Source of the DNA: Candidatus Micrarchaeota archaeon
GTDB lineage: Archaea; Micrarchaeota; Micrarchaeia; Norongarragalinales; SBBD01
Assembly (NCBI GenBank): GCA_038046605.1
Contig: JBBSVW010000026.1
Coordinates: 1 to 23,270 of the forward strand
Reading direction: 5' to 3'
DNA: 23,270 nt
Shown here: piece by piece, positions 7,198-19,515 of the stretch
How the letters are laid out: every line of letters starts with the position of its first letter
How positions within the stretch are numbered: the stretch's first letter is position 1
Position numbers and translations under genes: made by a program
Notes under the pieces: model-generated
Database searches by the model: none
What the model saw: only the letters and a program-made list of their open reading frames with translations
What the model was told of the DNA's origin: nothing

Positions 7198-8721
7198 CTA
7201 ATTTCCTCCCCCTTCCTTGAAATTCATGTGGTCCAATTTTCCGGTGTGCATATTGTAATATGGGAAGATGCAGGGGGTTGGCATATGCCCAAGCCTAACC
7301 TGGTAATCGGTCCTATCCTGCCAGGTGCCCGAATTCACTATGAGCGTCCCGTTGTAGTTTTCGATGTGCCCGTTCTTATGCACATGCCCGAAATGGAACA
7401 TGTCGGGGGTTTCTTCTATCACAAGGTAATCCTTGGATTCTGGCACAAGGGGATCTTCCCCATATAGGGGGGAGAGGTGCTTTCGCTGAAGCAGCCCAAC
7501 AGCCACCTTTTCGGGATGATCGTAGCCATCCTTGTACATTGCGGTATGCGAAATAATCCCATCCAGCGAGGTTCCATGGTACATGAGAAGCTCAAGGCCG
7601 TGCACAAGGTGGGCGGATGGGTTGCCAACAAAATGGATGTTGGAATACCCTTTGAGGGATTCCCAGAATTCCTGCGATAATGCCGGCTGGGGCTCCGCCA
7701 CCCGAACCGCGTCATGGTTGCCAGGGGCAATAATGACTTCTATGTGGTCTGGAATGGTCTTGATGAATTCGCAGAATATCTCGTATTGGGTGTGGATGCT
7801 TTTTGTGACCAGCTGCTTTTCCTGCGAGGGGTAAACCCCAATGCCGTCTACCAGATCGCCGGCAAAACTTATGTATTTTATTTTTCCCGCAATCTCCCTT
7901 TGCTTTGGAGTGCCCTTCCCATTCAGGAATTCAAGCATTTTTTGGAAATTCTCCTGGAGGAAATACTTGGAGCCTACATGCGAATCCGAAAGGAAGCCGA
8001 TTAGCACCTCCTCTTCCGTAAGCTTTTTTGTGCGCTCCTGAAGGAGCCTTCCTGGCCGGACGAAATTTTTTGCGATCAGGAGGGAGGAATCAGTATGGTA
8101 GGTGTCGAATGCAATTACCTCGTCGTTTAGGATCTGGGATGCCTCATAGAAGATGCGGGAATCCTTTGGGACCAAAAGTGTTGCCGTGCTATCGCTATCC
8201 TCGATGTCAAACATCAGGTGGCCATTCTTGGTCACGCGCTTTTCATAAACCATCGCAATAATGCGCGCCTGCTTCCCCTTGAGATGGTTTTTCACATCCC
8301 GGATGGAATAGATGCCCCCGCTTTCCGTTGCCATGCCCCGAAGGCTTTTGCGGTGCTTGTCAAACCGGTCATTGAAATAGCGCACAAAATCCTCCACGCT
8401 TCCGGTGCAGCGGGAATTATTCGTTACGTCGTTCCTGATGGATAGGCTGATGTCGGATCCTATTGATTTAGCGGGAGGATCGTAAAAGGTTTGCTGCAAA
8501 ACCTCGACCTGAACGACCTTGCCCTCAATGGATATGCTTTCCACGATGTCATGGACATGCTGCCCATCGGCTATCATCAGGTTTCGCTTTGAGAGTTCCT
8601 CAATTATTTTTTCAGGTTCGGAGTATTCCATGATGCCAATTAGCGCCTCGGGCGAAACTATGACCTCCTTTTCCTTGAGCCTTTGAAGAATTTGGCCCCT
8701 GTCAAGTGCCATGATGACCAC
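7198..8721 (-). CDS. polB: DNA polymerase D small subunit DP1, proofreading exonuclease (start probably ATG at 8712)
   Basis: Calcineurin-like phosphoesterase motifs SDSHVGS, AGDLVDGIGVYP, PGNHDAVRVAEPQP, YHG, HFGHVH, NSGTWQ, plus an OB-fold region; directly upstream of DP2. Confidence 0.97.
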   Translation of the reverse strand: MVIMALDRGQILQRLKEKEVIVSPEALIGIMEYSEPEKIIEELSKRNLMIADGQHVHDIVESISIEGKVVQVEVLQQTFYDPPAKSIGSDISLSIRNDVTNNSRCTGSVEDFVRYFNDRFDKHRKSLRGMATESGGIYSIRDVKNHLKGKQARIIAMVYEKRVTKNGHLMFDIEDSDSTATLLVPKDSRIFYEASQILNDEVIAFDTYHTDSSLLIAKNFVRPGRLLQERTKKLTEEEVLIGFLSDSHVGSKYFLQENFQKMLEFLNGKGTPKQREIAGKIKYISFAGDLVDGIGVYPSQEKQLVTKSIHTQYEIFCEFIKTIPDHIEVIIAPGNHDAVRVAEPQPALSQEFWESLKGYSNIHFVGNPSAHLVHGLELLMYHGTSLDGIISHTAMYKDGYDHPEKVAVGLLQRKHLSPLYGEDPLVPESKDYLVIEETPDMFHFGHVHKNGHIENYNGTLIVNSGTWQDRTDYQVRLGHMPTPCIFPYYNMHTGKLDHMNFKEGGGN

Positions 8722-8819
8722 TAATTGTTATTTTTCCCTCCAACTATTAATTGCGTTTTTCCCGATTTTAAATAAGCAAAAGATACCTTATTAACCCCCT
8801 TTCCGAAAGTTTAAATCCC

Positions 8820-8846
8820 ATGATAATCCTAGGCTTTGAAAGCACG
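8820..8846 (+). pseudogene. Duplicate kae1 5' fragment (MIILGFEST), interrupted by the hairpin element
   Basis: ATG ATA ATC CTA GGC TTT GAA AGC ACG matches 8 of the first 9 residues of Kae1 at 9022 (MLILGFEST). The frame runs into the element and stops at 8862-8864. Confidence 0.75.
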
Positions 8847-8948
8847 ACACCCCATGGGGGCTAAGCCCCAACACCAAGGGGAAAGATTCCCCCTACCGTG
8901 TTGCCCTACCCCCTCAAGTGCGCCGCCTCCCCCTTATTTAGTCCTTCA
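8845..8948 (+). repeat. Hairpin element copies A (outer, 8845-8948) and B (nested, 8869-8913)
   Basis: Outer: CGACAC-cccat-GGGGGC-taa-GCCC[..]..caa-GTGCGCC-gcctccccc-TTATTTA-gtc-CTTCA. Inner: CAACAC-caa-GGGGAA-aga-TTCCCC-ctacc-GTGTTG-ccc-TACCCCC. Both align with the copies at 10951 and 14717. Confidence 0.8.
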
Positions 8949-9021
8949 AATCAATTGATGATGGGCATATTAACGAAAGCGGGCTTGAAATTAATATTGT
9001 TAAAAAAAACAGGGATTAAAA

Positions 9022-10197
9022 ATGCTGATCCTGGGTTTCGAATCAACGGCGCATACATTCGGGGCGGCTGTGGTTGAGAGCAAATTGGATTTGGGGAAGG
9101 CTGGAAAGAAGGGATATACATCCGGGAAAATACTTAGCCCATCGAATACCAAAATTATCGCCGAAACAGACATGAAATTCCCCGCGCTCAAGGAGGGATT
9201 CATTCCGCGCAAGCTTGCGGATTTCCATGCGAGGAATTTTGATGGAATTTTGGATGGGACGCTGGAAAAGGCGGGGGTTGGGCTTGGTGATTTGGATGCT
9301 GTTTGCTATTCATATGGCCCTGGCATCGGGCACACATTGCATATTGGCTTCATTGCGGCAAAAAGCATCTCCATTGCAAAATCCATACCGATGATACCAG
9401 TGAACCACGCGCTTTCGCATGTGGAAATCGCAAGGTTCCATTCGGGGATAATCGATCCGCTTGCTGTTTATGTCTCCGGAGGGAACACACAGATTATGGT
9501 GCTCGAAGGCCTGATGCATGGAGGGATAAAAAATGCAAAAAGAATGGGGGAGACTGAAAAATCCAATGGAAAGCACCCCGCATCTGCCCATTTGAAGCGA
9601 TACCATGTTTTGGGGGAAACCCTCGATATTGGCCTTGGCAATTATTTAGATCAGGTGGGAAGGCATTTCCGGCTTTCTCCACCAGATGCTGTGGGCGTCC
9701 TAAAGCAAGCTGCAAATGGGAAAAATCTGCTTCCACTCCCTTATATAGTGAAGGGGATGAACACCTCCTTTTCAGGCATGCTAACGGCAGTAAAAAAACT
9801 TGGGGCGAATTCAAATGGCGGCATAAACGGGAAAGGGCACAAAAATAATATCGATGGCACGAAGGCAGTAAATAGATTGCCGGACATTTGCCTCTCCGCA
9901 CAGGAATACGCCTTTTCGATGCTCCTTGAAACCGCCGAAAGGGGTTTGACACTGACCGGAAAGAAGGGGATAGTCGGAGTTGGGGGAAATTACCGCAACA
10001 AGCGCCTTCAGGAAATGACAATGGAACTATCAAAAGAGCATAAAATCAAGTGCCATTTCCCCACATTTGAACTTCTGGGGGACAATGCAGGGATGATCAC
10101 AATTACCGGGACGCAAGAGTTTGCATCAGGAATTTATCCGTCAAATCCAGCGCCCAACCAGAAGGCAAGGATTGATGGGGAAATTGTGGGTTGGTAG
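9022..10197 (+). CDS. kae1: tRNA N6-threonylcarbamoyladenosine synthesis protein Kae1 (KEOPS), not fused to Bud32
   Basis: LGFESTAHTFG, YSYGPG, VNHALSH (HxxxH), YVSGGNTQ, GETLDIGLGN, GDNAGMI. Confidence 0.95.
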   Translation: MLILGFESTAHTFGAAVVESKLDLGKAGKKGYTSGKILSPSNTKIIAETDMKFPALKEGFIPRKLADFHARNFDGILDGTLEKAGVGLGDLDAVCYSYGPGIGHTLHIGFIAAKSISIAKSIPMIPVNHALSHVEIARFHSGIIDPLAVYVSGGNTQIMVLEGLMHGGIKNAKRMGETEKSNGKHPASAHLKRYHVLGETLDIGLGNYLDQVGRHFRLSPPDAVGVLKQAANGKNLLPLPYIVKGMNTSFSGMLTAVKKLGANSNGGINGKGHKNNIDGTKAVNRLPDICLSAQEYAFSMLLETAERGLTLTGKKGIVGVGGNYRNKRLQEMTMELSKEHKIKCHFPTFELLGDNAGMITITGTQEFASGIYPSNPAPNQKARIDGEIVGW

Positions 10198-10842: not shown

Positions 10843-10948
10843 GCAGGGGTGGCAGAGATTCCCGCAAGGGGACTGCAACTTGGTCAAATGCGCAGGGCTT
10901 AGGACCCTGTGCCTTAGGGCTGCAAGGGTTCAAATCCCTTCCCCTGCA
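10843..10948 (+). tRNA. tRNA-Leu(TAG) with a 21-nt D-loop intron (10858-10878, position 15/16)
   Basis: Acceptor GCAGGGG/CCCCTGC + A73; anticodon arm CAGGG-CTTAGGA-CCCTG; long variable arm; T arm AAGGG-TTCAAAT-CCCTT. Mature length is 85 nt after removing the intron. Confidence 0.93.
10858..10878 (+). other. tRNA-Leu non-canonical intron (BHB/BHL type)
   Basis: 4-bp helix GCAG(10852-55)/CTGC(10873-76) with 3-nt bulges AG|A and AA|C; inner stem TTCCC-GCAA-GGGGA with a GNRA loop. Confidence 0.88.
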
Positions 10949-11031
10949 CTCGACACCTATAGGGGAGTAACTCCCCTACTCGTGTCGCCTCTACCCCTTT
11001 ATTTACTTCAGCAAATCCCTTCCCCTGCACT
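10931..11031 (+). repeat. Perfect 20-bp direct repeat of the tRNA-Leu 3' end flanking a 61-bp insert
   Basis: CAAATCCCTTCCCCTGCACT at 10931-10950 and 11012-11031. Confidence 0.95.
10951..11011 (+). repeat. Hairpin element copy C
   Basis: CGACAC-cta-TAGGGGAG-taa-CTCCCCTA-ctc-GTGTCG-cctc-TACCCC-tttattta-CTTCA. Confidence 0.85.
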
Positions 11032-11105: not shown

Positions 11106-12635
11106 TCAAAGCTTGGGGAACATCGCCTTTCTGTGCTGTTCCCGGTCAACTTCCTCCCTTGCAAGCGGCTGCTTCTTTTCCCCGGATCCCATCACAGTGC
11201 GGATATCCATCTCCTTGTTGTGGATGCCCCCGCTCCCGCCCTTCTTCCTGAATTTGACGATGTAAATCACGACTCCAATCAAGGTGGCAAGGACGACGAC
11301 AATCGCTACAGTTGTTGTCAAATCCAGCTCGTTTTGCCTTGAAGGAAGGCCAAGGGCGCGCCGGCCAATATCAATGAATTTGGCCTCAAGTTTTGCGAGC
11401 TCCGCAACAGTGACTACCGAATTGTTTGAAAGCCGTTTGTTTACATCATCCATTTCCGAACGGACAGATTTATGTTCGTTTGTTAGGTCGATTACGCGGG
11501 TATCATTTGCGGTATATTTTAACGCTGCAGCATCAATTGCCGCTTTAGCGTATTTTTCAGCCGATACGGTTTTGTTGTATGAAAACAAAAGACCATTTGG
11601 ATCGTCTATTATCGCTGCAAGTTCCCCATAACGCGTGTTCATGGTATTGAAATTATTGGAAGCGCCCTCGAAAGTGCTCGAATTCTTCAATTTTTCATAG
11701 GCTGCCTCAATTTCCTTGTATTTTGCATCAATTGGGGCGAATTTGACCGGCACAACCGATGTCTTGTTGATCGCCTTTTCCAGCACCTCCCTTCCCTGCA
11801 CCTGGAGCTCCTTGATTTTAAGCACATCCTTCCTTGAATTGTAGATTCGGATGATATCCAAGGCCTCCGTATTGATATCAGTGATCTTGTCCCTATAAGC
11901 CTCCCCGGATAGGCGGATTACCTCGTCCACATAGCCGTATTTGAATGCGCAGAATGGATCTTTTTCCATTGTCTTTCCAAGGAAATAGGCATAGCCAACG
12001 CCCGCATCGTCAAAATAAACCGTTTCGTTTTTAGCCTTTGTTCCCGCAATGTTTATTTGGGAAAGGGCGTCCCCTATCTGCTCCCTGCTTGCTGCCGTTT
12101 TCAGGAGCTGGATTTTTTCATCGTAAACATCCCACGATTCCTTCATGCGCTTCCGTTGGGCAAATACTGCATCGCAAACCCTGCCGGTTGAGGCATCAAC
12201 ACAACGGAACTGAGCCCAGAAGAAATTGGTTTCAACAAGGTCATAGAAGTAGAAATGGCATTTGTCAAATAGCACTTTTGATTCGTTGTAGTTTCTAAGA
12301 AGATCAGCTTTTGTAGCCTCGGTAAAGCCCGTGGCGCCGCTTTGGAGGTAATAATCCCTCAAAACCGAAACCAAAGTCGCCTCATCGGTTACCGGATCGA
12401 CTTTATCATTGAACACAAGCGAGCTCTTGCCATCTATCAAGACGACATAAAATACCTTCCCTTCGGATGTGTTCAGGATGAAATATTCGGCGCTTTCGCC
12501 CCTAAGCACATATTTCCTTGCCTCATCATCAACGTTTTTCGTTGCGGCATTGGAAAAGGCGGCAATTAGCAGCAAGAACAGCATTGCAAAACCGGCAAAT
12601 TTCATGTTAGTCTTCATAGGGATCACTATTCTCAA
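11106..12635 (-). CDS. Hypothetical surface protein: signal peptide, helical/coiled-coil ectodomain, C-terminal TM anchor (start may be 12617 or 12605)
   Basis: Signal MKFAGFAMLFLLLIAAFSNA; Ala/Glu/Lys-rich helical body; TM VAIVVVLATLIGVVIYIV followed by KFRKK. Confidence 0.85.
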   Translation of the reverse strand: MRIVIPMKTNMKFAGFAMLFLLLIAAFSNAATKNVDDEARKYVLRGESAEYFILNTSEGKVFYVVLIDGKSSLVFNDKVDPVTDEATLVSVLRDYYLQSGATGFTEATKADLLRNYNESKVLFDKCHFYFYDLVETNFFWAQFRCVDASTGRVCDAVFAQRKRMKESWDVYDEKIQLLKTAASREQIGDALSQINIAGTKAKNETVYFDDAGVGYAYFLGKTMEKDPFCAFKYGYVDEVIRLSGEAYRDKITDINTEALDIIRIYNSRKDVLKIKELQVQGREVLEKAINKTSVVPVKFAPIDAKYKEIEAAYEKLKNSSTFEGASNNFNTMNTRYGELAAIIDDPNGLLFSYNKTVSAEKYAKAAIDAAALKYTANDTRVIDLTNEHKSVRSEMDDVNKRLSNNSVVTVAELAKLEAKFIDIGRRALGLPSRQNELDLTTTVAIVVVLATLIGVVIYIVKFRKKGGSGGIHNKEMDIRTVMGSGEKKQPLAREEVDREQHRKAMFPKL

Positions 12636-12715
12636 TTAAGATGGGGGAGTTTTTAAATCTAAGCAGTTGGGAAGCTAAAAAAGTTCCGGTCAGAAATAAA
12701 GGCTGCCCCATTGAT

Positions 12716-14041
12716 TTATTCAAGTAAGGGATTTGCAACTTTCCCCATGAAGAGAATGACGCCGGTTGCCTTCTCCTGGATAAGGAAGATGAAGGGATGG
12801 TCGGCCTTGAATTCGGGAATGTATTGGGGCATTATTGCGGTTATGCCAACAACAATGCCAGTTGCAGCGGCGGCCTCAGTGCCTTCCTCATTAACCTCGA
12901 CAAACGCCTTGTGGTATGCTCCAGTTACTGAAAGGCCAAGGGTACCATCAATACCCGAAAGATCTGCACCCTCAGAAAATACGTCCCCGACACCCATGGC
13001 CATCAAATTCTCCTTTAATGAATAGCCGTCATCAAACTTGAATTTGGGGAAGATGAGGTCGATGCGGCGCTGGCTCATTCCAGATTTCCATTGGCCCAAC
13101 TTCTCAACAGTCAAGCTGCGCTCAAGACCAGCCAATTCACCATCCTTCGGAAGCAATACTAGCATGGAAAGCGAATCGCCCTTGTAGGGCATTTCAAGGA
13201 CCTGCAGCTGTTCATTTTCCATGTAATTAAACACGGCATCCTTGTCGTTCCGGTACATATATTGGGCTTTGGCCTTTTGCCCTCCCTCCAATCTGAATTC
13301 GCCTTCCAACGTATCCTTCTTATCAAATGCTTTTATCCAAGTGCCCTTGAAATAGATGGCATTGGCAATAACCAACCTAGTGCCAAAGTCAACTGATCCT
13401 TGTGGAAGCAAATCAACTATCTTATCGTTGGTTTTTTCTTCCACCCAATCATTTATCGTGTTTCTGGAACCCTCAGCATTGTTCTTGAAATCAACATTGC
13501 GAATTTCGCTCCCATAAAAATCAGATGCGGTTGCCTTGTAGGCGTTTAGGATGGGGTAGGTTTTTTCTATCCAAAGTGAATTTGCAACGCTTAGTTTGTA
13601 GGCTTCATTCCTGGCATTAAGCCTCGTATTGAGGTCCTTGAACCCGTTTTGCCTTATAGCGGAATCAGGATCAAGCCCAAAAACTCCCTGAAGCTCACTA
13701 GCCGTGATTCCTTTTGCACCCTCAGCCAGGATTGCAAACGCCTCGCTTATGCTGAAAGGTGAGAAAAAGAGGTTTCCGGCTTCCTTATCCTTTATTTGGG
13801 AGTAGAAATCAAATGCGAATTTGTTGTTCGCATCCGCCATTGCCAGGTCGGATGGGGAAATGGAAACAGAAGGAATGGATGTAGGGGATGGAATGGACGT
13901 AGGTATTGGCGTTGAACTTGGAATTATAGTTGCAGAGGGGGAAATTGTTGGAGTTGGGGATGGGATGGGCTGCATTTGATTTGTGCATCCAAATAATAGA
14001 AGCCCGGAAATCAACAAAAGTGCAATTAATGCAAATTTCAT
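12716..14041 (-). CDS. Serpin (serine protease inhibitor), lipoprotein-type signal and Pro/Ser/Thr linker
   Basis: NLFFSPFSIS, INDWVEEKTNDKI, NAIYFKGTW, hinge VNEEGTEAAAAT, FKADHPFIFLI, LFMGKV. Start moved to MKFALIALLLISGLLLFGC (ATG 14041, AGGTGG SD-like sequence upstream). Confidence 0.95.
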   Translation of the reverse strand: MKFALIALLLISGLLLFGCTNQMQPIPSPTPTISPSATIIPSSTPIPTSIPSPTSIPSVSISPSDLAMADANNKFAFDFYSQIKDKEAGNLFFSPFSISEAFAILAEGAKGITASELQGVFGLDPDSAIRQNGFKDLNTRLNARNEAYKLSVANSLWIEKTYPILNAYKATASDFYGSEIRNVDFKNNAEGSRNTINDWVEEKTNDKIVDLLPQGSVDFGTRLVIANAIYFKGTWIKAFDKKDTLEGEFRLEGGQKAKAQYMYRNDKDAVFNYMENEQLQVLEMPYKGDSLSMLVLLPKDGELAGLERSLTVEKLGQWKSGMSQRRIDLIFPKFKFDDGYSLKENLMAMGVGDVFSEGADLSGIDGTLGLSVTGAYHKAFVEVNEEGTEAAAATGIVVGITAIMPQYIPEFKADHPFIFLIQEKATGVILFMGKVANPLLE

Positions 14042-14156
14042 AACCATTCCACCTGCACAAATTAAGGGCGAATTTGTATATATACCATTTTGAAAGGTTA
14101 AAGATTGGCTTAACATCCGATTTTGAGCCTTGTTGCCTATGCGCTTCCCCCCCTTT

Positions 14157-14169
14157 GAAACCTTTAAAA
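14157..14169 (+). promoter_or_regulatory. Putative BRE-TATA promoter of the tRNA-Tyr/tRNA-Asp pair
   Basis: GAAACCTTTAAAA 61 nt before tRNA-Tyr; the same 13-mer occurs at 3471-3483 (-). Confidence 0.55.
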
Positions 14170-14261
14170 AAGAAGGATGGCATAAATCTATTCCATTCCC
14201 GAGAATACAGCATGTCGGGAAGTAGTTAATCCCGCAGTAGCTCAATCTGGCAGAGCGTCTG

Positions 14262-14547: not shown

Positions 14548-14604
14548 TCTGGCCTGCGGGATTTTTGCCTTGGTAGTGTAGTGGTCCAGCATAGGGGCTT
14601 GTCG

Positions 14605-14695
14605 TCGAACCTTTTTCTTTTCTCGAAAAGAAAAAGCACTCCGGAAAAAGAAAAGGAAGTGTGTTTCGCGAATTAGAGAAGGAGGTTCTGCAAAC
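14605..14695 (+). other. tRNA-Asp intron 1 (91 nt, canonical 37/38)
   Basis: BHB helix TTGT(14599-602)/GCAA(14690-93), bulges CG|T and AC|A, inner GAACCT/AGGTTC. Confidence 0.88.
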
Positions 14696-14716
14696 AGCCC
14701 TTGACCCGGGTCCGAA

Positions 14717-14796
14717 TGACACAAAGGGGGATGTTTCCCCCTATCGTGTCGCCTTACCCCCTCTTGATTGAAGGGAAAATGGCGTTCATACGGAAA
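14717..14796 (+). other. tRNA-Asp intron 2 (80 nt, T-loop 59/60), containing hairpin element copy D (14717-14762)
   Basis: Helix TCCG(14711-14)/CGGA(14791-94), bulges AA|T and AA|T. The 5' part is TGACAC-aa-AGGGGGA-tgtt-TCCCCCT-atc-GTGTCG-cct-TACCCCC. Confidence 0.85.
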
Positions 14797-14811
14797 TCCC
14801 GGCCAAGGCGC

Positions 14812-14998: not shown

Positions 14999-17080
14999 CT
15001 AAATGGAGTCTTCCATGCGCATTTCGGTTTTATCAATCAGCGGCACAATTATTTTATTTATTTTTTTTATGTAATTTTCGCAAATGCTAACGTCTTCCTT
15101 TGATTGGTTAATAATTCGACCGCTCGATCCGTGCCCATAGGGACCACGAATAAACGATATTTTACTTAAGGCTTGTTGTAATTCGCCTAAGTTTGCAAAT
15201 CCATTAGGTTTAACAAAAATATTTTCAAAACAATCCGTCCAATTATTTTTTTGGGAAATAATATTTATTTCCTGCCCTAGGTCGATAAAATCTTCAAATT
15301 GCCCATTTTCCTTTTTCTTTTTTTCATTTATATAACCTTGAATGTCGCCGGGGATTCTGCTTTTTTCCCATTTTGAATCAATTATTTGTAAAGTATTTCT
15401 TATCATTATACTTATATTTCTTTCAAGATTTTGAATTTTATCGAATATTTCTTCTTCCTCCATGCTCTCCCAGAAACTAACACCAACCTTCCGTTTGATT
15501 TCGACACCAATTTTTTTTGCTAGATCCTTCCTTGCTCCCTCATTGGTAGTACTTAATTTGATTTCCCTTATTGCGGTTTCATCCAATTCCATGAAATATT
15601 CGCCAATTACTTCCACATATTTCGATAATGCCTCTCTTGACGGTATTCGCTCAATATGAGACAAAATGGGTTCAAACAAATAGAGTAATACGGGCACACC
15701 TGCATTACCAAAAACATAATTTCGCGCGTTTTCTTTAGTTATTTTTTCATAGATAGATTTGAAATATCTGCTAATAGTATTTGCAGTCCTATTTCGTTGC
15801 GTCATTTTATTCTCGTCATAAAGGGGGTTATTGATCCCCCTTAAATTTGGAAGCAAATCTCGGGTTATTCTCGAGTTTTTTATACCCGAACAAAATGCAC
15901 TAATGGAAATTGACGATTCTGTTTTTTGCCCTTTTTTTGGAATGTAAATCATGTTTTCAAATGGATTGTTTTTTAAATCTGCAAAATTTGCAGGGGGGGA
16001 ATCTATCATTTTTACAATATTTGAAATTAACCCTTCTTCAGTTTCGCAATACGGATCAGCCTCACCTTCCAAGTCCCAGATTAAATCAGATGAAACAGGT
16101 TTTTGCTCCTTATTAATATCGAGAAATAAACTCCTCTCCTCATTTGGTTTAAGAAGAGTTAATGCTATACAAGGGACTAAATCAGATTGTTTTGCCCGTA
16201 CTGCACCAAATAACCTGTGTTGACCATCAATAACCCAACAATTTTGCCCGGTAATATTCAAAAAAACAAATTCCCAATCTGGTGTTTTTTTATATATTTT
16301 ATAATAATAAGAATCGTTGATGGGACCCCGTAAGGATAAAATAATATTTGATGGAAAATAACCTCCGGTATCAACATATTTCTCTATTCGCTTGAGTTTA
16401 TTTTTTTCGAGAGTCCTCTGATAAAATTCCTCGTCTCCCCGCCCTCTTCTTGCAACATATGATATTTTTATAAGGTCCAATGGATTTGCATAGAAAATAA
16501 AGGCAAAACGCCCACCAAGTTTCGTTTTGATCGCAGGGATTTGAAAAGGTTCACTAATAAAGGGTATATTGGAATATTTTGAAATTTCGTTAAGTATGCT
16601 ATAAACCGCATTTTCCTTAATCTTATCAGATAAATCGTTATAATAATCTAAAAACTGCTCATCGATCAAAAAGATTTTATCGGGACCATTTTGTAAAATT
16701 GTTTCCCCTTGAGGCGTAAGCCCCATTCGTTTTATTGCCAATATGGGAATTATTTTCTCAAAATCTTTGTCTTTTTTATTAGAAAAATGAGTAATTATCG
16801 TATTTACTTTATCCCGCCATTCACGTATTTCACTAACCTGCAATTTCTTTAATTTCCCCCGACTTTTACCAGATTTGCATTCAATAATAAACAAGTTTTT
16901 TCCAAATTTGGCTATGCAATCTATTTCAATTTCTTCCGATGAAATATGTATTGTTTCCTTTGTTTTAACTTCAGAAAAGCCAGCTCTTTCAAATAGACTT
17001 TTAATTTCTATCTCGAAGTTATCTCCAACTTCAACAGAAGATTCCTCATCCTCAACTTGGTCTTCCATGAAATCTACCAT
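14999..17080 (-). CDS. DGQHR (DndB/ParB-like) domain protein with N-terminal PD-(D/E)xK nuclease-like and C-terminal HEPN-like domains
   Basis: N-terminal FE...EIDCIAK...IIECKS; central YQR, FPSNII, VIDGQHRL, LFLDINKEQKPV; C-terminal LE..I..MI..L.....WEK..IP and RGPYGH (Rx4H). Confidence 0.85.
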   Translation of the reverse strand: MVDFMEDQVEDEESSVEVGDNFEIEIKSLFERAGFSEVKTKETIHISSEEIEIDCIAKFGKNLFIIECKSGKSRGKLKKLQVSEIREWRDKVNTIITHFSNKKDKDFEKIIPILAIKRMGLTPQGETILQNGPDKIFLIDEQFLDYYNDLSDKIKENAVYSILNEISKYSNIPFISEPFQIPAIKTKLGGRFAFIFYANPLDLIKISYVARRGRGDEEFYQRTLEKNKLKRIEKYVDTGGYFPSNIILSLRGPINDSYYYKIYKKTPDWEFVFLNITGQNCWVIDGQHRLFGAVRAKQSDLVPCIALTLLKPNEERSLFLDINKEQKPVSSDLIWDLEGEADPYCETEEGLISNIVKMIDSPPANFADLKNNPFENMIYIPKKGQKTESSISISAFCSGIKNSRITRDLLPNLRGINNPLYDENKMTQRNRTANTISRYFKSIYEKITKENARNYVFGNAGVPVLLYLFEPILSHIERIPSREALSKYVEVIGEYFMELDETAIREIKLSTTNEGARKDLAKKIGVEIKRKVGVSFWESMEEEEIFDKIQNLERNISIMIRNTLQIIDSKWEKSRIPGDIQGYINEKKKKENGQFEDFIDLGQEINIISQKNNWTDCFENIFVKPNGFANLGELQQALSKISFIRGPYGHGSSGRIINQSKEDVSICENYIKKINKIIVPLIDKTEMRMEDSI

Positions 17081-17451
17081 ATAATTTTCTTTTTAATAAA
17101 CGTATCTATTTGATGTTCCCATATGCGGATTACCCTCCAGCCAACTTTCTTTAGCCGCATTGTCTTTTCTTTATCCCGTTCAACATTCCTTTTCAATTTT
17201 GGGACCCAATATTTGCGGTTGCTTTTTGGGATATGACCGTGCTTAGGACAGTTATGCCAAAAGCATCCATCAATGAATATTGCTGTTTTTTTGGATGGAA
17301 TGGCAATGTCGATTTTTTCCTTGCCGTAATGAAGGCGATATTTGACCCCTGATTTCCTCAAGATTGCTCGAAACAGTTTTTCGGGTAGGGTATGCTTTGA
17401 CTTTATCGCGGACATTATTTTTGAACGTATTTTCTTTTTTACAGGATCCAT
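17074..17451 (-). CDS. vsr: Very short patch repair endonuclease
   Basis: MD......RSKIMSAIKSKHTLPE, IDIA, FIDGCFWHNCPKH, YWVPKLKRNVERD, GWRVIRIWEH. Start set at ATG 17451; the stop overlaps the DGQHR gene start (ATGGTAG). Confidence 0.95.
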   Translation of the reverse strand: MDPVKKKIRSKIMSAIKSKHTLPEKLFRAILRKSGVKYRLHYGKEKIDIAIPSKKTAIFIDGCFWHNCPKHGHIPKSNRKYWVPKLKRNVERDKEKTMRLKKVGWRVIRIWEHQIDTFIKKKIIW

Positions 17452-17458
17452 CCCCCAT

Positions 17459-18331
17459 TCACTTCTCGAATACCGATTCGATGAGCTTGTCAATTTTTGG
17501 GATCGTAGTATCCATTTTCACGCTTTGTTCAAATAGCCCCTTTGATGCCGTATGCAGCCTAAGGCTTAGGGTCAGCCCATTATCGAAATTAATCAATATT
17601 GTGCTATTGCTTGCTCTTGTTATTTCCATATGATCTGGCATGGGGATATTTGTAAAATCAATGATCTCGACTTTATGGGCAGAATTCTTGACCATGTAAA
17701 ACGGGATAGTGCCAGTTAAAAAATGGAAAAAGGTAGGCGCGCTGCTTTTGTTCAAATTCAAAAAATCCATAACCAATTTGGTCAGGGGGAAATACAATTT
17801 CTTATTTATAAACTCCATATCTTTGTTTTTTATCTCCTCGAAAGTCTTTGCTGCTGGGAATGATTTTTTTGCTTCAAGGTAAAACTTGGACCAAATCCCT
17901 TCATATTGCAAATCATATTTAGCCAATACGCGGGAGTCATTTACACCACATTGCTCAGGCAGCCTCGTCAGCCTCGGGTGCTTTAGCGCGGGATAGTTAT
18001 TTTTTATGGAAAGATTGATTGAGCGGCCATTGCTAAAAGCTAAACGTATATCGGTAGGGTCCCCAGTCACACCACTGCTATCTGGCAGCCTATCAAGAAT
18101 TACCTTGATTTTTCGGCTGCCAATTTTTTTCTCCAACCAACGGACAGTTATCTCCGCACACTTTGAAAAATTTTCCCTTATTTTATCACTTAATCTAGAG
18201 TAATACTTCTCGTCAACTGCATTGTCCTTTTTTGCCCGTTCAGTCAAATCGCATTTTTCAAAGTGCGCCAGTATTTCCTTGCAGATGATGTATTCCAATG
18301 TTCTTCCGTTATCATCAGATGCGGTTGGCAT
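17459..18331 (-). CDS. Type II restriction endonuclease, HaeIII family (predicted GGCC)
   Basis: SDDNGRTLEY, DSSGVTGDPTDI, LSIKNNYPALKHPRL and LRLHTAS resemble HaeIII-family motifs; divergent from a HaeIII-like MTase. Start set at ATG 18331. Confidence 0.8.
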   Translation of the reverse strand: MPTASDDNGRTLEYIICKEILAHFEKCDLTERAKKDNAVDEKYYSRLSDKIRENFSKCAEITVRWLEKKIGSRKIKVILDRLPDSSGVTGDPTDIRLAFSNGRSINLSIKNNYPALKHPRLTRLPEQCGVNDSRVLAKYDLQYEGIWSKFYLEAKKSFPAAKTFEEIKNKDMEFINKKLYFPLTKLVMDFLNLNKSSAPTFFHFLTGTIPFYMVKNSAHKVEIIDFTNIPMPDHMEITRASNSTILINFDNGLTLSLRLHTASKGLFEQSVKMDTTIPKIDKLIESVFEK

Positions 18332-18501
18332 AAGCCTCAACAGGGTATATTCTCCCGCGGTTTTTATTCGTATTGCTTGAAATCGCGATTTGTGGGGGGG
18401 ATCAAATACCACCAGAAATGACCTCCCGCAATGTACTTAAATAGGATAAACCCTCAAAATAAGTATGAGGTCGAGTGTGGGGGATGAAAAAGGCGCATAC
18501 A

Positions 18502-19515
18502 ATGAAAGTAATATCTTTGTTTACTGGCTGCGGCGGCTTAGACCTGGGTTTCGAACATGCAGGGTTCGAAATAGCTTATGCTAATGATTATGACCCTGTG
18601 ATGAAGGATACCTTTGAAAAGAACCATAGCGTCGAATTGGACCTTAGATCCATTGTCAATGTGAAATCTGACGAGATACCTGATGCTGAAGGCATAATTG
18701 GTGGCCCTCCCTGCCAAAGCTGGAGCCTTGCAGGTGCCATGAGGGGCATTGAAGATCAGCGGGGGCAATTATTTTACGAATATATCCGCATCCTAAAAGA
18801 TAAGCAACCCTTGTTCTTTGTTGCGGAAAATGTGCCCGGCATCGTTTCAACAACGCATATTGGCGAATTCACGAAAATATTGGAAAAATTCAGCAGCCTT
18901 GGCTATAATGTCAATTATGCCATCCTTGATGCACGGAATTATGGTGTGCCACAAGAAAGAAAGAGAGTTGTTGTTGTCGGATATCATAAGAAATTGGGAA
19001 AAACCTTTGCATTCCCCGAACCCAATAGCAAATGGATTACCCTTAAAGAAGCGATAGGGGATTTGCCAGATGCTAAACCAGCCAAGGAAAAAAACAAAAC
19101 AAATGGCGAATTAGGAATTGCTAACCAGGAATACATGAATGGAGGTTTCTCAACAATGTACTTGTCCCGAAATAGGCGCAGGGAATGGGGGGAACAGTCA
19201 TTTACCATCCAAGCTGGAGGCAGGCATGCACCACTTCATCCAAGCTCCTCAAAGATGAGGAAGGTTGAGGAAGACAAATGGGTTTTTGATGGCGACAACC
19301 CTAAATACCGCAGAATGTCAGTTCGTGAATGTGCCAGGATTCAAACTTTCCCAGATGATTTCATTTTCTACTACAACAACATTGCCGATGGCTACAAGAT
19401 GATAGGGAATGCTGTGCCAGTAAAGCTTGCGGAAGCGGTAGCAAAACAGATAATGTCAGATCTATCAAAGACCGATGTAGCAAAGGACACGCAAAAAATA
19501 AAAATTATCAATTAA
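18502..19515 (+). CDS. dcm: C5-cytosine DNA methyltransferase, M.HaeIII-like
   Basis: SLFTGCGG (motif I), GGPPCQSWS (IV), ENV (VI), QERKRV (VIII), RECARIQTFP, IGNAVP. The target-recognition region FSTMYLSRNRRREW..QSFTIQAGGRHAPLHP resembles M.HaeIII. Start could also be 18484. Confidence 0.95.
   Translation: MKVISLFTGCGGLDLGFEHAGFEIAYANDYDPVMKDTFEKNHSVELDLRSIVNVKSDEIPDAEGIIGGPPCQSWSLAGAMRGIEDQRGQLFYEYIRILKDKQPLFFVAENVPGIVSTTHIGEFTKILEKFSSLGYNVNYAILDARNYGVPQERKRVVVVGYHKKLGKTFAFPEPNSKWITLKEAIGDLPDAKPAKEKNKTNGELGIANQEYMNGGFSTMYLSRNRRREWGEQSFTIQAGGRHAPLHPSSSKMRKVEEDKWVFDGDNPKYRRMSVRECARIQTFPDDFIFYYNNIADGYKMIGNAVPVKLAEAVAKQIMSDLSKTDVAKDTQKIKIIN

Follow-up and report, generated by a model that had tools for sequence, protein, structure and literature searches.

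Two starts of kae1 on either side of a hairpin element

The window analyzed here, meaning the whole 23,270-nucleotide (nt) stretch of contig C26 from a 1.64-Mb genome of a Candidatus Micrarchaeota archaeon (G000; 106 contigs, 91% complete), carries two differently encoded copies of the first nine codons of kae1, an essential gene of the TsaD/Kae1 family, separated by a hairpin element. The element belongs to a family whose members are true bulge-helix-bulge (BHB) introns in the T-loops of three tRNA genes, and the kae1 layout is one case of a genome-wide pattern. We consider it probable that the 5' end with which kae1 originally began has been left stranded as the upstream copy, that the element copied its target upon insertion and left the second copy as the one that works, and that the two copies later diverged by recombination.

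The upstream start (8820 to 8846, plus strand), referred to below as the orphan copy, reads ATG ATA ATC CTA GGC TTT GAA AGC ACG (MIILGFEST), and its reading frame enters the element and stops after 14 codons. The downstream start (9022 to 9048, plus strand), the working copy, reads ATG CTG ATC CTG GGT TTC GAA TCA ACG (MLILGFEST) and opens a 391-amino-acid (aa) open reading frame (ORF), which is kae1 itself (9022 to 10197, plus strand; PF00814, E 3e-50). The initial annotation had reported two differently encoded N-termini at these places, with differences that are synonymous save for one conservative I/L change and that include serine as AGC in one copy and TCA in the other. Direct reading of the letters agrees with that report: the two copies agree in eight of their nine residues and in 19 of their 27 bases, the eight base differences amount to the single I/L change at the protein level, and third positions are the same in four of the nine codons. 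The first copy also ends at the element's start, as had been claimed, since the element opens with GACAC at 8846 and has its G in common with codon 9. Read from 9022, the ORF aligns with the proteins of relatives from residue 1, with the N-terminal motif kept and the TsaD domain at full length, and its full-length matches in G005 and G001 are 70 to 71% identical. The peptide MLILGFEST of the working copy is the type of the genus, being found in all five same-genus genomes in which the start was found (G001, G002, G004, G005, and G006).

Two grounds on which the pair might have been dismissed, a chimeric assembly of two strains and a chance match, had been named in advance, and neither was borne out. 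Logan contigs from two samples of the same study, run X1 (possibly the source sample; contig covering 8300 to 9311) and run X2 (8300 to 9143), each span copy, element, and copy with 0 differences. Among the 3,266,066 six-frame 9-mer positions of the whole genome, at least 7 of 9 identities to MLILGFEST are reached at two sites only, and these are the two kae1 copies. The DNA similarity of the pair is not significant alone; the pair is absent from the 19 nucleotide-level duplications of G000 described below and is visible at the protein level only. The contigs of a further run, X3, end at 8726 and resume at 9046, which might reflect another haplotype, but a stretch without coverage is not evidence of one. 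The RNA run X4 has just two short contigs (8645 to 8832 and 9102 to 9302), and these give no information on the starts. Neither a joint across the kae1 insert, for which this is a test of almost no power, nor an element-free kae1 allele was present in the contigs compared.

Promoters and the ancestral start

The gene upstream of kae1, on the opposite strand, encodes the PolD small subunit DP1 (7198 to 8721, minus strand; PF04042/PF00149) and not, as the initial annotation had it, a polB product; the gene for the large subunit DP2 is next to it. DP1 is likewise the upstream neighbor of kae1 in G001, G002, G004, and G006. The 98 nt before the orphan ATG (8722 to 8819, plus strand) align over about 80 nt with the region upstream of kae1 in G005 (z 9.4; 0 of 300 shuffles equal) and include the TATA-like sequence TTATTAA at 8788 to 8794, which is 26 to 32 nt before that ATG. 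Because of this match and of the DP1 neighbor in four relatives, the orphan copy holds the ancestral promoter and position of kae1.

The 77 nt before the working ATG (8945 to 9021) match the kae1 upstream region of no relative (z below 0 for all five). They include 29 nt of filler between the element and the working start (8993 to 9021, plus strand) that are dissimilar to the relatives' upstream regions, and a TATA-like sequence, AAATTAATATT (8988 to 8998, plus strand), a candidate promoter box that is made up of the last bases of the element and the next bases and lies 24 to 34 nt before the working ATG. TTATTAA and the TTAATA within the second box (8991 to 8996) are located where they had been claimed to be. 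In the relatives, the TATA-like box of kae1 is at the same distance from the ATG as AAATTAATATT is from the working ATG, which suggests that kae1 transcripts are leaderless. The proposal that the insert supplied a new promoter is thus plausible, as the 3' end of the element forms part of a TATA-like box and the working copy stands behind sequence without a counterpart in relatives. Recoding at synonymous sites only is general to these duplications and fits the alternative proposal, that of a diverged allele, for one side. On the question of which start is ancestral, the evidence is split, as the promoter points to the orphan copy and the peptide to the working copy.

Anatomy of the kae1 insert

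The insert is a composite hairpin element of 147 nt (8846 to 8992, plus strand), in which an outer copy (8846 to 8869 plus 8916 to 8992) is split by an inner one. The inner core (8870 to 8915, plus strand), an nhmmer hit, is of the T-loop-intron subtype and forms repeat family D1 together with 10955 to 10999 and 14719 to 14763. From end to end, the insert can be aligned with the 142-nt T-loop intron of a tRNA-Gly(TCC) gene on contig C55, with the nested inner copy and the 3' GCTYGAAATT included; the 3' third of the insert alone gives z 2.9 against that intron (8 of 500 shuffles equal). The same nesting occurs at C89:16770, C76:12986, and C55:12520. A T-rich stretch, CCCCCTTATTTAG, is located near 8930 to 8943. 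The sequence at 8846/9048 does not allow a 4-bp helix flanked by 3-nt bulges, and only 3 pairs are left of the decayed outer helix (fold z -1.8); with the helix decayed and the splice motif lacking at these positions, the kae1 copy is not classed as an intron.

Inserts are also present upstream of kae1 in two relatives. An independent element lies 26 nt before the kae1 ATG in G002 (L006), with the flanks TTTATTAAA, and G001 (L003) has a 77-nt insert without a core and with a perfect 16-nt promoter repeat on both flanks. The kae1 upstream intergenic region is therefore a recurrent target. The Kae1 proteins of G000, G001, and G005 have two extra segments (approximately residues 164 to 191 and 262 to 286) that are missing from the other same-genus genomes.

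The element as a tRNA intron

In three tRNA genes, a copy of the element stands in the T-loop right after GAAT or AAAT, and removal of the segment yields cloverleaf tRNA-Asp(GTC), tRNA-Gly(GCC), and tRNA-Gly(TCC) in ARAGORN, a program to which two of the three are undetectable when unspliced. The flanks form a regular motif of T-stem, 4-bp helix, and 3-nt bulge, followed by the element's own RACAC/GTGTY helix; on C31, for example, the order is T-stem / TTCA / AAT / GACAC..GTGTC / TGAA / AAT / T-stem. The 4-bp helix (H) covaries with the T-loop sequence, being TTCA/TGAA on C31, TCCG/CGGA at 14714 to 14797 of the window, and TTCG/CGAA on C55. The BHB arrangement, with two 3-nt bulges and a 4-bp helix, is found in the T-loop copies only, and it is in these three genes that the element is a true BHB intron. 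The genome encodes a broad-type splicing endonuclease EndA (PF01974, two matched stretches in one 395-aa frame) and the RNA ligase RtcB (PF01139, E 2e-171).

The window contains one of the three genes. The tRNA-Asp(GTC) gene (14567 to 14811, plus strand), called by ARAGORN after removal of the T-loop segment, has a canonical 91-nt intron (14605 to 14695) and an 80-nt element-type T-loop intron (14718 to 14797), with TCCG/CGGA as the H helix and AAT bulges; its native sequence is missed by both ARAGORN and Rfam. A second element site of the window adjoins tRNA-Leu(TAG) (10864 to 10949, plus strand, coordinates as called by ARAGORN and Rfam). The parallel that had been drawn between this site and kae1 holds: by repeat reading (10931 to 11031, plus strand), the 20 nt of the tRNA 3' end (10931 to 10950) are followed by the element (10952 to about 11010) and by a perfect copy of those 20 nt (11012 to 11031). 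Further copies of the element are found 2 to 5 nt past tRNA 3' ends. Before the same tRNA (10843 to 10870), the 3' acceptor strand finds a perfect pairing partner in a GCAGGGG at 10843, and the called 5' strand at 10864 has one mismatch to it; the GCAGGGG could reflect a D-arm intron or a duplicated tRNA 5' end.

Sequence, fold, and distribution of the element family

The core of the element, of about 45 nt, consists of RACAC, a 4x4 internal loop, a G/C-rich hairpin, and GTGTY, and then continues with GCC..CTACCCC; many copies go on with TTTATTTACTTCTGCGAAT, and longer versions have additional hairpins between GTGT and CGCC. Over 46 distinct cores from three genomes, the first core base and the final base of GTGTY vary together (G-C 28, A-U 17, G-U 1), and two pairs of the inner stem switch among G-C, A-U, and C-G. 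For the plain copy that follows tRNA-Leu, the folding energy is -21.5 kcal/mol (z -6.4). A regular expression detected 21 copies in G000, and a profile made from those 21 gave 64 nhmmer hits at an E value of ≤1e-3, the basis for our estimate of about 64 copies in this genome. In Rfam, tRNA is the sole family matched, and the element is without a match.

The family to which G000 belongs, designated f1, was represented by 10 other genomes in four genera. The core pattern occurs in all 10 of these and in 1 of 57 genomes from other families of the order; the reversed pattern, which served as a control, had 1 match in total, in one non-f1 genome. Across genera whose genes are synonymously saturated, the element cores are nearly identical. 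A 25-nt core pattern was found at 16 loci in metagenome contigs, 12 of them from the source assembly, and had 0 matches in viral contigs. Among the sense-strand copies listed, the base before the element is a pyrimidine in all but 2, and there is no target consensus beyond that pyrimidine. In the literature searched, whose coverage did not extend to supplementary tables, we found no published description of such elements.

Flank duplications across the genome and its relatives

Flanks were tested for duplication with 200 shuffles per copy and a cutoff of p≤0.005 at 47 copies in G000 and at 20 copies from G002 and G003 (all 7 distinct pattern sites in G003 and the first 13 listed for G002). Significant duplications were detected at 19 of the 47 and at 11 of the 20, and in all 30 the left copy ends at most 6 nt from the element's first base. 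What is duplicated is 18 to 60 nt of the neighboring gene end. Some of the duplications are perfect or near-perfect over 36 to 58 nt, noncoding bases included, and two more of this quality are found on other metagenome contigs. The copy-element-copy layout is present in G003, a genome of 7 contigs, and in other metagenome contigs as well. In most duplications other than that of kae1, the element is antisense to the gene. The 45-nt left flanks have no second match beyond about 1.1 kb, and there are therefore no large elements bounded by these repeats.

In several cases, the layout is element-X-element-X, a resident element having its 3' end just before the left copy, and the two elements differ in subtype. 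On C73, four orphan ends stand in line behind a secretion-ATPase gene, with frame and stop kept in each. Some 3' junctions show suggestive microhomology. When the rows were classified by reading, the intact gene was located 3' of the element in 17 loci and 5' in 4 (p of about 0.007, two-sided, hand calculation); nine rows were unclear, two of them being tRNAs lying 5'.

Recoding and divergence of the copies

Pooled over 12 diverged pairs, there are 58.3 synonymous differences at 78.8 sites and 29.7 nonsynonymous differences at 350.2 sites, i.e., a pS of 0.74, a pN of 0.085, and a ratio of 0.11; in this count, two pairs have one common working copy (C73), and the frame at C9:8701 is doubtful. 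The calculated ratio expected if the orphan had decayed neutrally, with change on one side only, is about 0.55. Because the duplicates differ almost only synonymously, the orphans appear to have been ends of working genes themselves, or copies taken from such ends, and not decayed copies. The differences are often mosaic, as at L065, where 20 identical bases are followed by 5 third-position changes. The orphans of the Hsp20 and ATPase genes carry residues found only in G000's own working copies, and orphans are not foreign in a wide sense. The differences between the kae1 copies are not adenine-specific, which speaks against mutagenesis of the diversity-generating retroelement type.

Several loci could be compared between organisms. 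Archease is a cofactor of the tRNA ligase RtcB, and in its gene an element lies after codon 14 to 16, and neither of its junctions differs in position among three organisms (G000 C90:12775-12940; L052 of G003; L085/L088). Each archease orphan resembles the working copy of its own species, including one indel common to both, which shows homogenization within lineages. At the Hsp20 gene, the junctions differ between G000 and G003, and the insertions are therefore separate events. The ATPase gene of G003 has the same junction as that of G000, and the pair in G003 differs at 5 bases, all synonymous. DP1 and Kae1 of G000 are about equally distant from those of all same-genus genomes (third-position identity of 0.26 to 0.53), and the C73 orphans are not closer to G005 than the working copy is (39 to 44 of 54 bases by hand count).

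Origin of the two starts

We propose that an element copy of 147 nt, of the same kind as the tRNA T-loop BHB intron, inserted directly after codon 9 of kae1. Insertion would produce a tandem copy of 18 to 60 nt of the target, such that a hit straddling a gene end would leave the gene intact; behind the element, 29 nt of filler would be followed by a second set of codons 1 to 9 joined to the gene body. Kae1 would then be made from the second copy at 9022, most likely from a leaderless mRNA initiated from the TATA-like box across the element's 3' end, and the old promoter would drive only a 14-codon dead-end frame into the hairpins and the T-rich stretch. Each copy would be contiguous with a different flank and could be overwritten by recombination, the source being working alleles carried by close relatives or by cells that lack the element. 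The orthologue-like differences, with synonymous sites saturated and the protein kept, would arise because the copies have separate histories, each having been overwritten from working alleles.

A number of observations weigh against this proposal. No insertion enzyme was found in G000, an element-free kae1 allele was not seen among the contigs compared, and the 29-nt filler has no explanation in it. The bias of 17 versus 4 in the side of the gene body is not predicted by a symmetric duplication model. The synonymous sites of the kae1 copies are saturated, at the level seen between species of the genus, and ordinary homologous recombination between alleles so distant should be rare; no donor lineage is identifiable from the comparison of DP1, Kae1, or C73 with the same-genus genomes.

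It is conceivable, although we rather doubt it, that the element instead brought its own recoded kae1 start and promoter as a replacement-end cassette, landed at codon 9, took over the gene, and orphaned the resident start, as a miniature version of the integrative elements that make good the gene in which they land. Such a cassette would explain the side bias better than target copying does, with the gene body 3' of the element in 17 of 21 classifiable loci. It would also agree with an orphan that retains the native promoter and a working copy that stands behind unrelated sequence, with the orthologue-like divergence, with the arrays of successive ends behind one gene (C73), and with near-identical cores across genera with saturated genes, which imply spread between species. 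However, the many perfect duplications of the local target, noncoding bases included, indicate that the end was copied on site at least initially, and the orphans have lineage-specific residues in common with their own working copy. There were 0 matches to PF00589, no cargo, no long-range repeats, and no viral-contig match, and about 20 targets would require about 20 specialized cassettes.

An independent local tandem duplication of the kae1 5' region, e.g., by replication slippage, with the element between the copies later or coincidentally, is improbable: such duplications are common, and nothing specific speaks for one here, whereas 30 of 30 left copies abut the element's first base within 6 nt, the layout is repeated at about 30 loci in three genomes, and the kae1 loci of relatives have no element-free duplication save for the G001 insert. 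We think it very unlikely that both starts are used, either because the tRNA splicing endonuclease joins 8846 to 9049 or because two promoters give rise to MIILG and MLILG isoforms. Both RtcB and an EndA of the broad type are present in the host, in tRNAs the element is a true intron, and use of both copies would account for purifying selection on both. Yet the 4-bp helix and 3-nt bulges are lacking at 8846 and 9048, the outer helix has 3 pairs with a fold z of -1.8, the element is antisense to the gene in most other duplications, and no joint was present in the contigs compared (with almost no power). That the layout is an artefact, whether because two strains were assembled into a chimera or because the match is due to chance, is hardly credible. 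The genome is a short-read metagenome assembly in which the element is repeated about 60 times, but the region is spanned without any difference by one contig from each of two samples, the genome-wide 9-mer null leaves only the two kae1 copies, and the layout is also present in the 7 contigs of G003 and in other metagenome contigs.

Route of insertion

Searches of G000 (91% complete) gave 0 matches for reverse transcriptase (PF00078), tyrosine integrase (PF00589), and TnpB; serine recombinases were not searched for. The inserts are without an ORF and without cargo. A single Y1_Tnp gene is present (C9:24253-24699), and its flanking hairpins are unlike the element. The insertions have a characteristic anatomy, namely, an exact 5' end at the helix base that follows a pyrimidine, a variable 3' junction, long and variable target copies, and an attraction to resident copies, and because of these features we suggest that the host's replication or repair machinery is responsible, by joining the 5' end of a strand protected by its hairpin and extending the strand from the 3' end. 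As a tentative generalization, possible but not one on which we would insist, the element may be a DNA-level mobile BHB intron that host replication or repair enzymes insert in this manner, with the strand joined at the exact 5' end and 18 to 60 nt of the target copied during 3' extension. A hit in a T-loop would then result in an intron and a hit at a gene end in an orphan, and the attraction of new copies to residents would build arrays.

The surroundings of the Y1_Tnp gene (C9:23160-24700) contain this GC-rich IS200-like gene with its own hairpins adjoining a 277-aa ORF, in which we take a motif to be LAGLIDADG-like, and also a tRNA with two copies of its 3' end, one on each side of a long variant of the element. 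A family of five ORFs of 120 to 206 aa (C101, C47, C79, C89, and C9), without a Pfam match and not adjoining elements, is the only protein family with at least 4 copies in the genome.

Relation to known introns and mobile elements

The closest known kind is the "intron transposition" inferred in Thermoproteales (Fujishima 2010, as cited in PMC3239211 and 10.64898/2026.10.13.758758). T-loop introns at 59/60 are documented in ARMAN-2 (PMC3239211), and 10.64898/2026.10.13.758758 states that the route of arrival of archaeal tRNA introns "remains open." Like archaeal noncanonical BHB introns, the element has a strict helix-bulge-helix-bulge-helix in three tRNA T-loops, related copies in different tRNA genes, and a host with EndA and RtcB. 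Unlike them, it has most of its copies outside RNA genes, at protein-gene ends and with long target duplications, and the portions of these papers that are accessible describe no such DNA-level footprint for BHB introns or intron transposition.

The initial annotation had likened the insert to an integrative element, and in the classical sense this is not what it is, given the lack of integrase and cargo and the duplicated ends elsewhere that are perfect target copies. Replacement-end integrative elements include archaeal plasmids and viruses that integrate in tRNA genes and e14/phage 21 at Escherichia coli icd. The order target-insert-target, the intact gene, the displaced orphan end, and the targeting of tRNA 3' ends are features that the element has in common with them and with the model proposed for Caldiarchaeum, in which an element bearing a recombinase disrupts tRNA genes (PMC3293823). 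In contrast to integrative elements, the inserts are 45 to 150 nt long, the repeats span 18 to 60 nt, fresh repeats are local target copies, and there are many targets per genome. An integrase-type element fails on two counts: PF00589 had 0 matches in the 91%-complete genome (serine recombinases not searched) and the inserts have no ORF, and in place of an identical att core and one target there are about 20 targets with repeats of 18 to 60 nt, those of kae1 being 19/27 identical.

MITEs (miniature inverted-repeat transposable elements) and REP/RAYT repeats are small, noncoding, and structured, occur in tens of copies, mostly intergenic, and have no enzyme of their own. The element is like them in being small, structured, and noncoding, with tens of copies that lie mostly between genes and with no enzyme of its own. 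It is not a MITE, as no terminal inverted repeats bound the unit, the RACAC/GTGTY helix leaves the 3' third of the core outside, and the duplications are long and variable. An IS200/IS605 or REP/RAYT identity fails on the hairpins of the Y1_Tnp gene, which are unlike the element, and on the presence of target duplications; a target-primed retroelement fails on the 0 matches to PF00078 in the 91%-complete assembly. At rhs/cdiA loci, arrays of orphan C-terminal ends stand behind genes. The four orphan ends on C73 are similarly displaced in series behind a working gene; in contrast to rhs/cdiA, they encode the same peptide, without functional diversification, and each is preceded by a hairpin element.

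A single sequence family occurs as a true intron in T-loops and also as dispersed inserts that leave a clear DNA footprint, which makes the question of intron arrival testable in these genomes. If the element is a mobile BHB intron, it would provide the missing route by which archaeal tRNA introns arrive, and the orphans would preserve gene ends as they were at given dates, a record of gene flow among DPANN lineages. Divergence of orphans at synonymous sites only may serve as a population-genetic signal of recombination or of import between lineages, in organisms for which laboratory crosses are not yet possible. For annotation, the pattern offers an explanation for short "pseudo-starts" and "pseudo-ends" beside essential genes in DPANN genomes, and it suggests that a gene can survive the replacement of its promoter.

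Other features of the window

Beyond tRNA-Leu, the minus strand carries two tandem 509-aa ORFs (11106 to 14245), of which the first is without a Pfam match and the second encodes a serpin (PF00079, E 8.5e-119). Immediately past the tRNA-Asp gene with its introns, genes for a DndB-like protein (below the Pfam cutoff), a HaeIII-type restriction enzyme, and a C-5 cytosine methylase adjoin one another at 14999 to 19515 and likely constitute a defense cluster.

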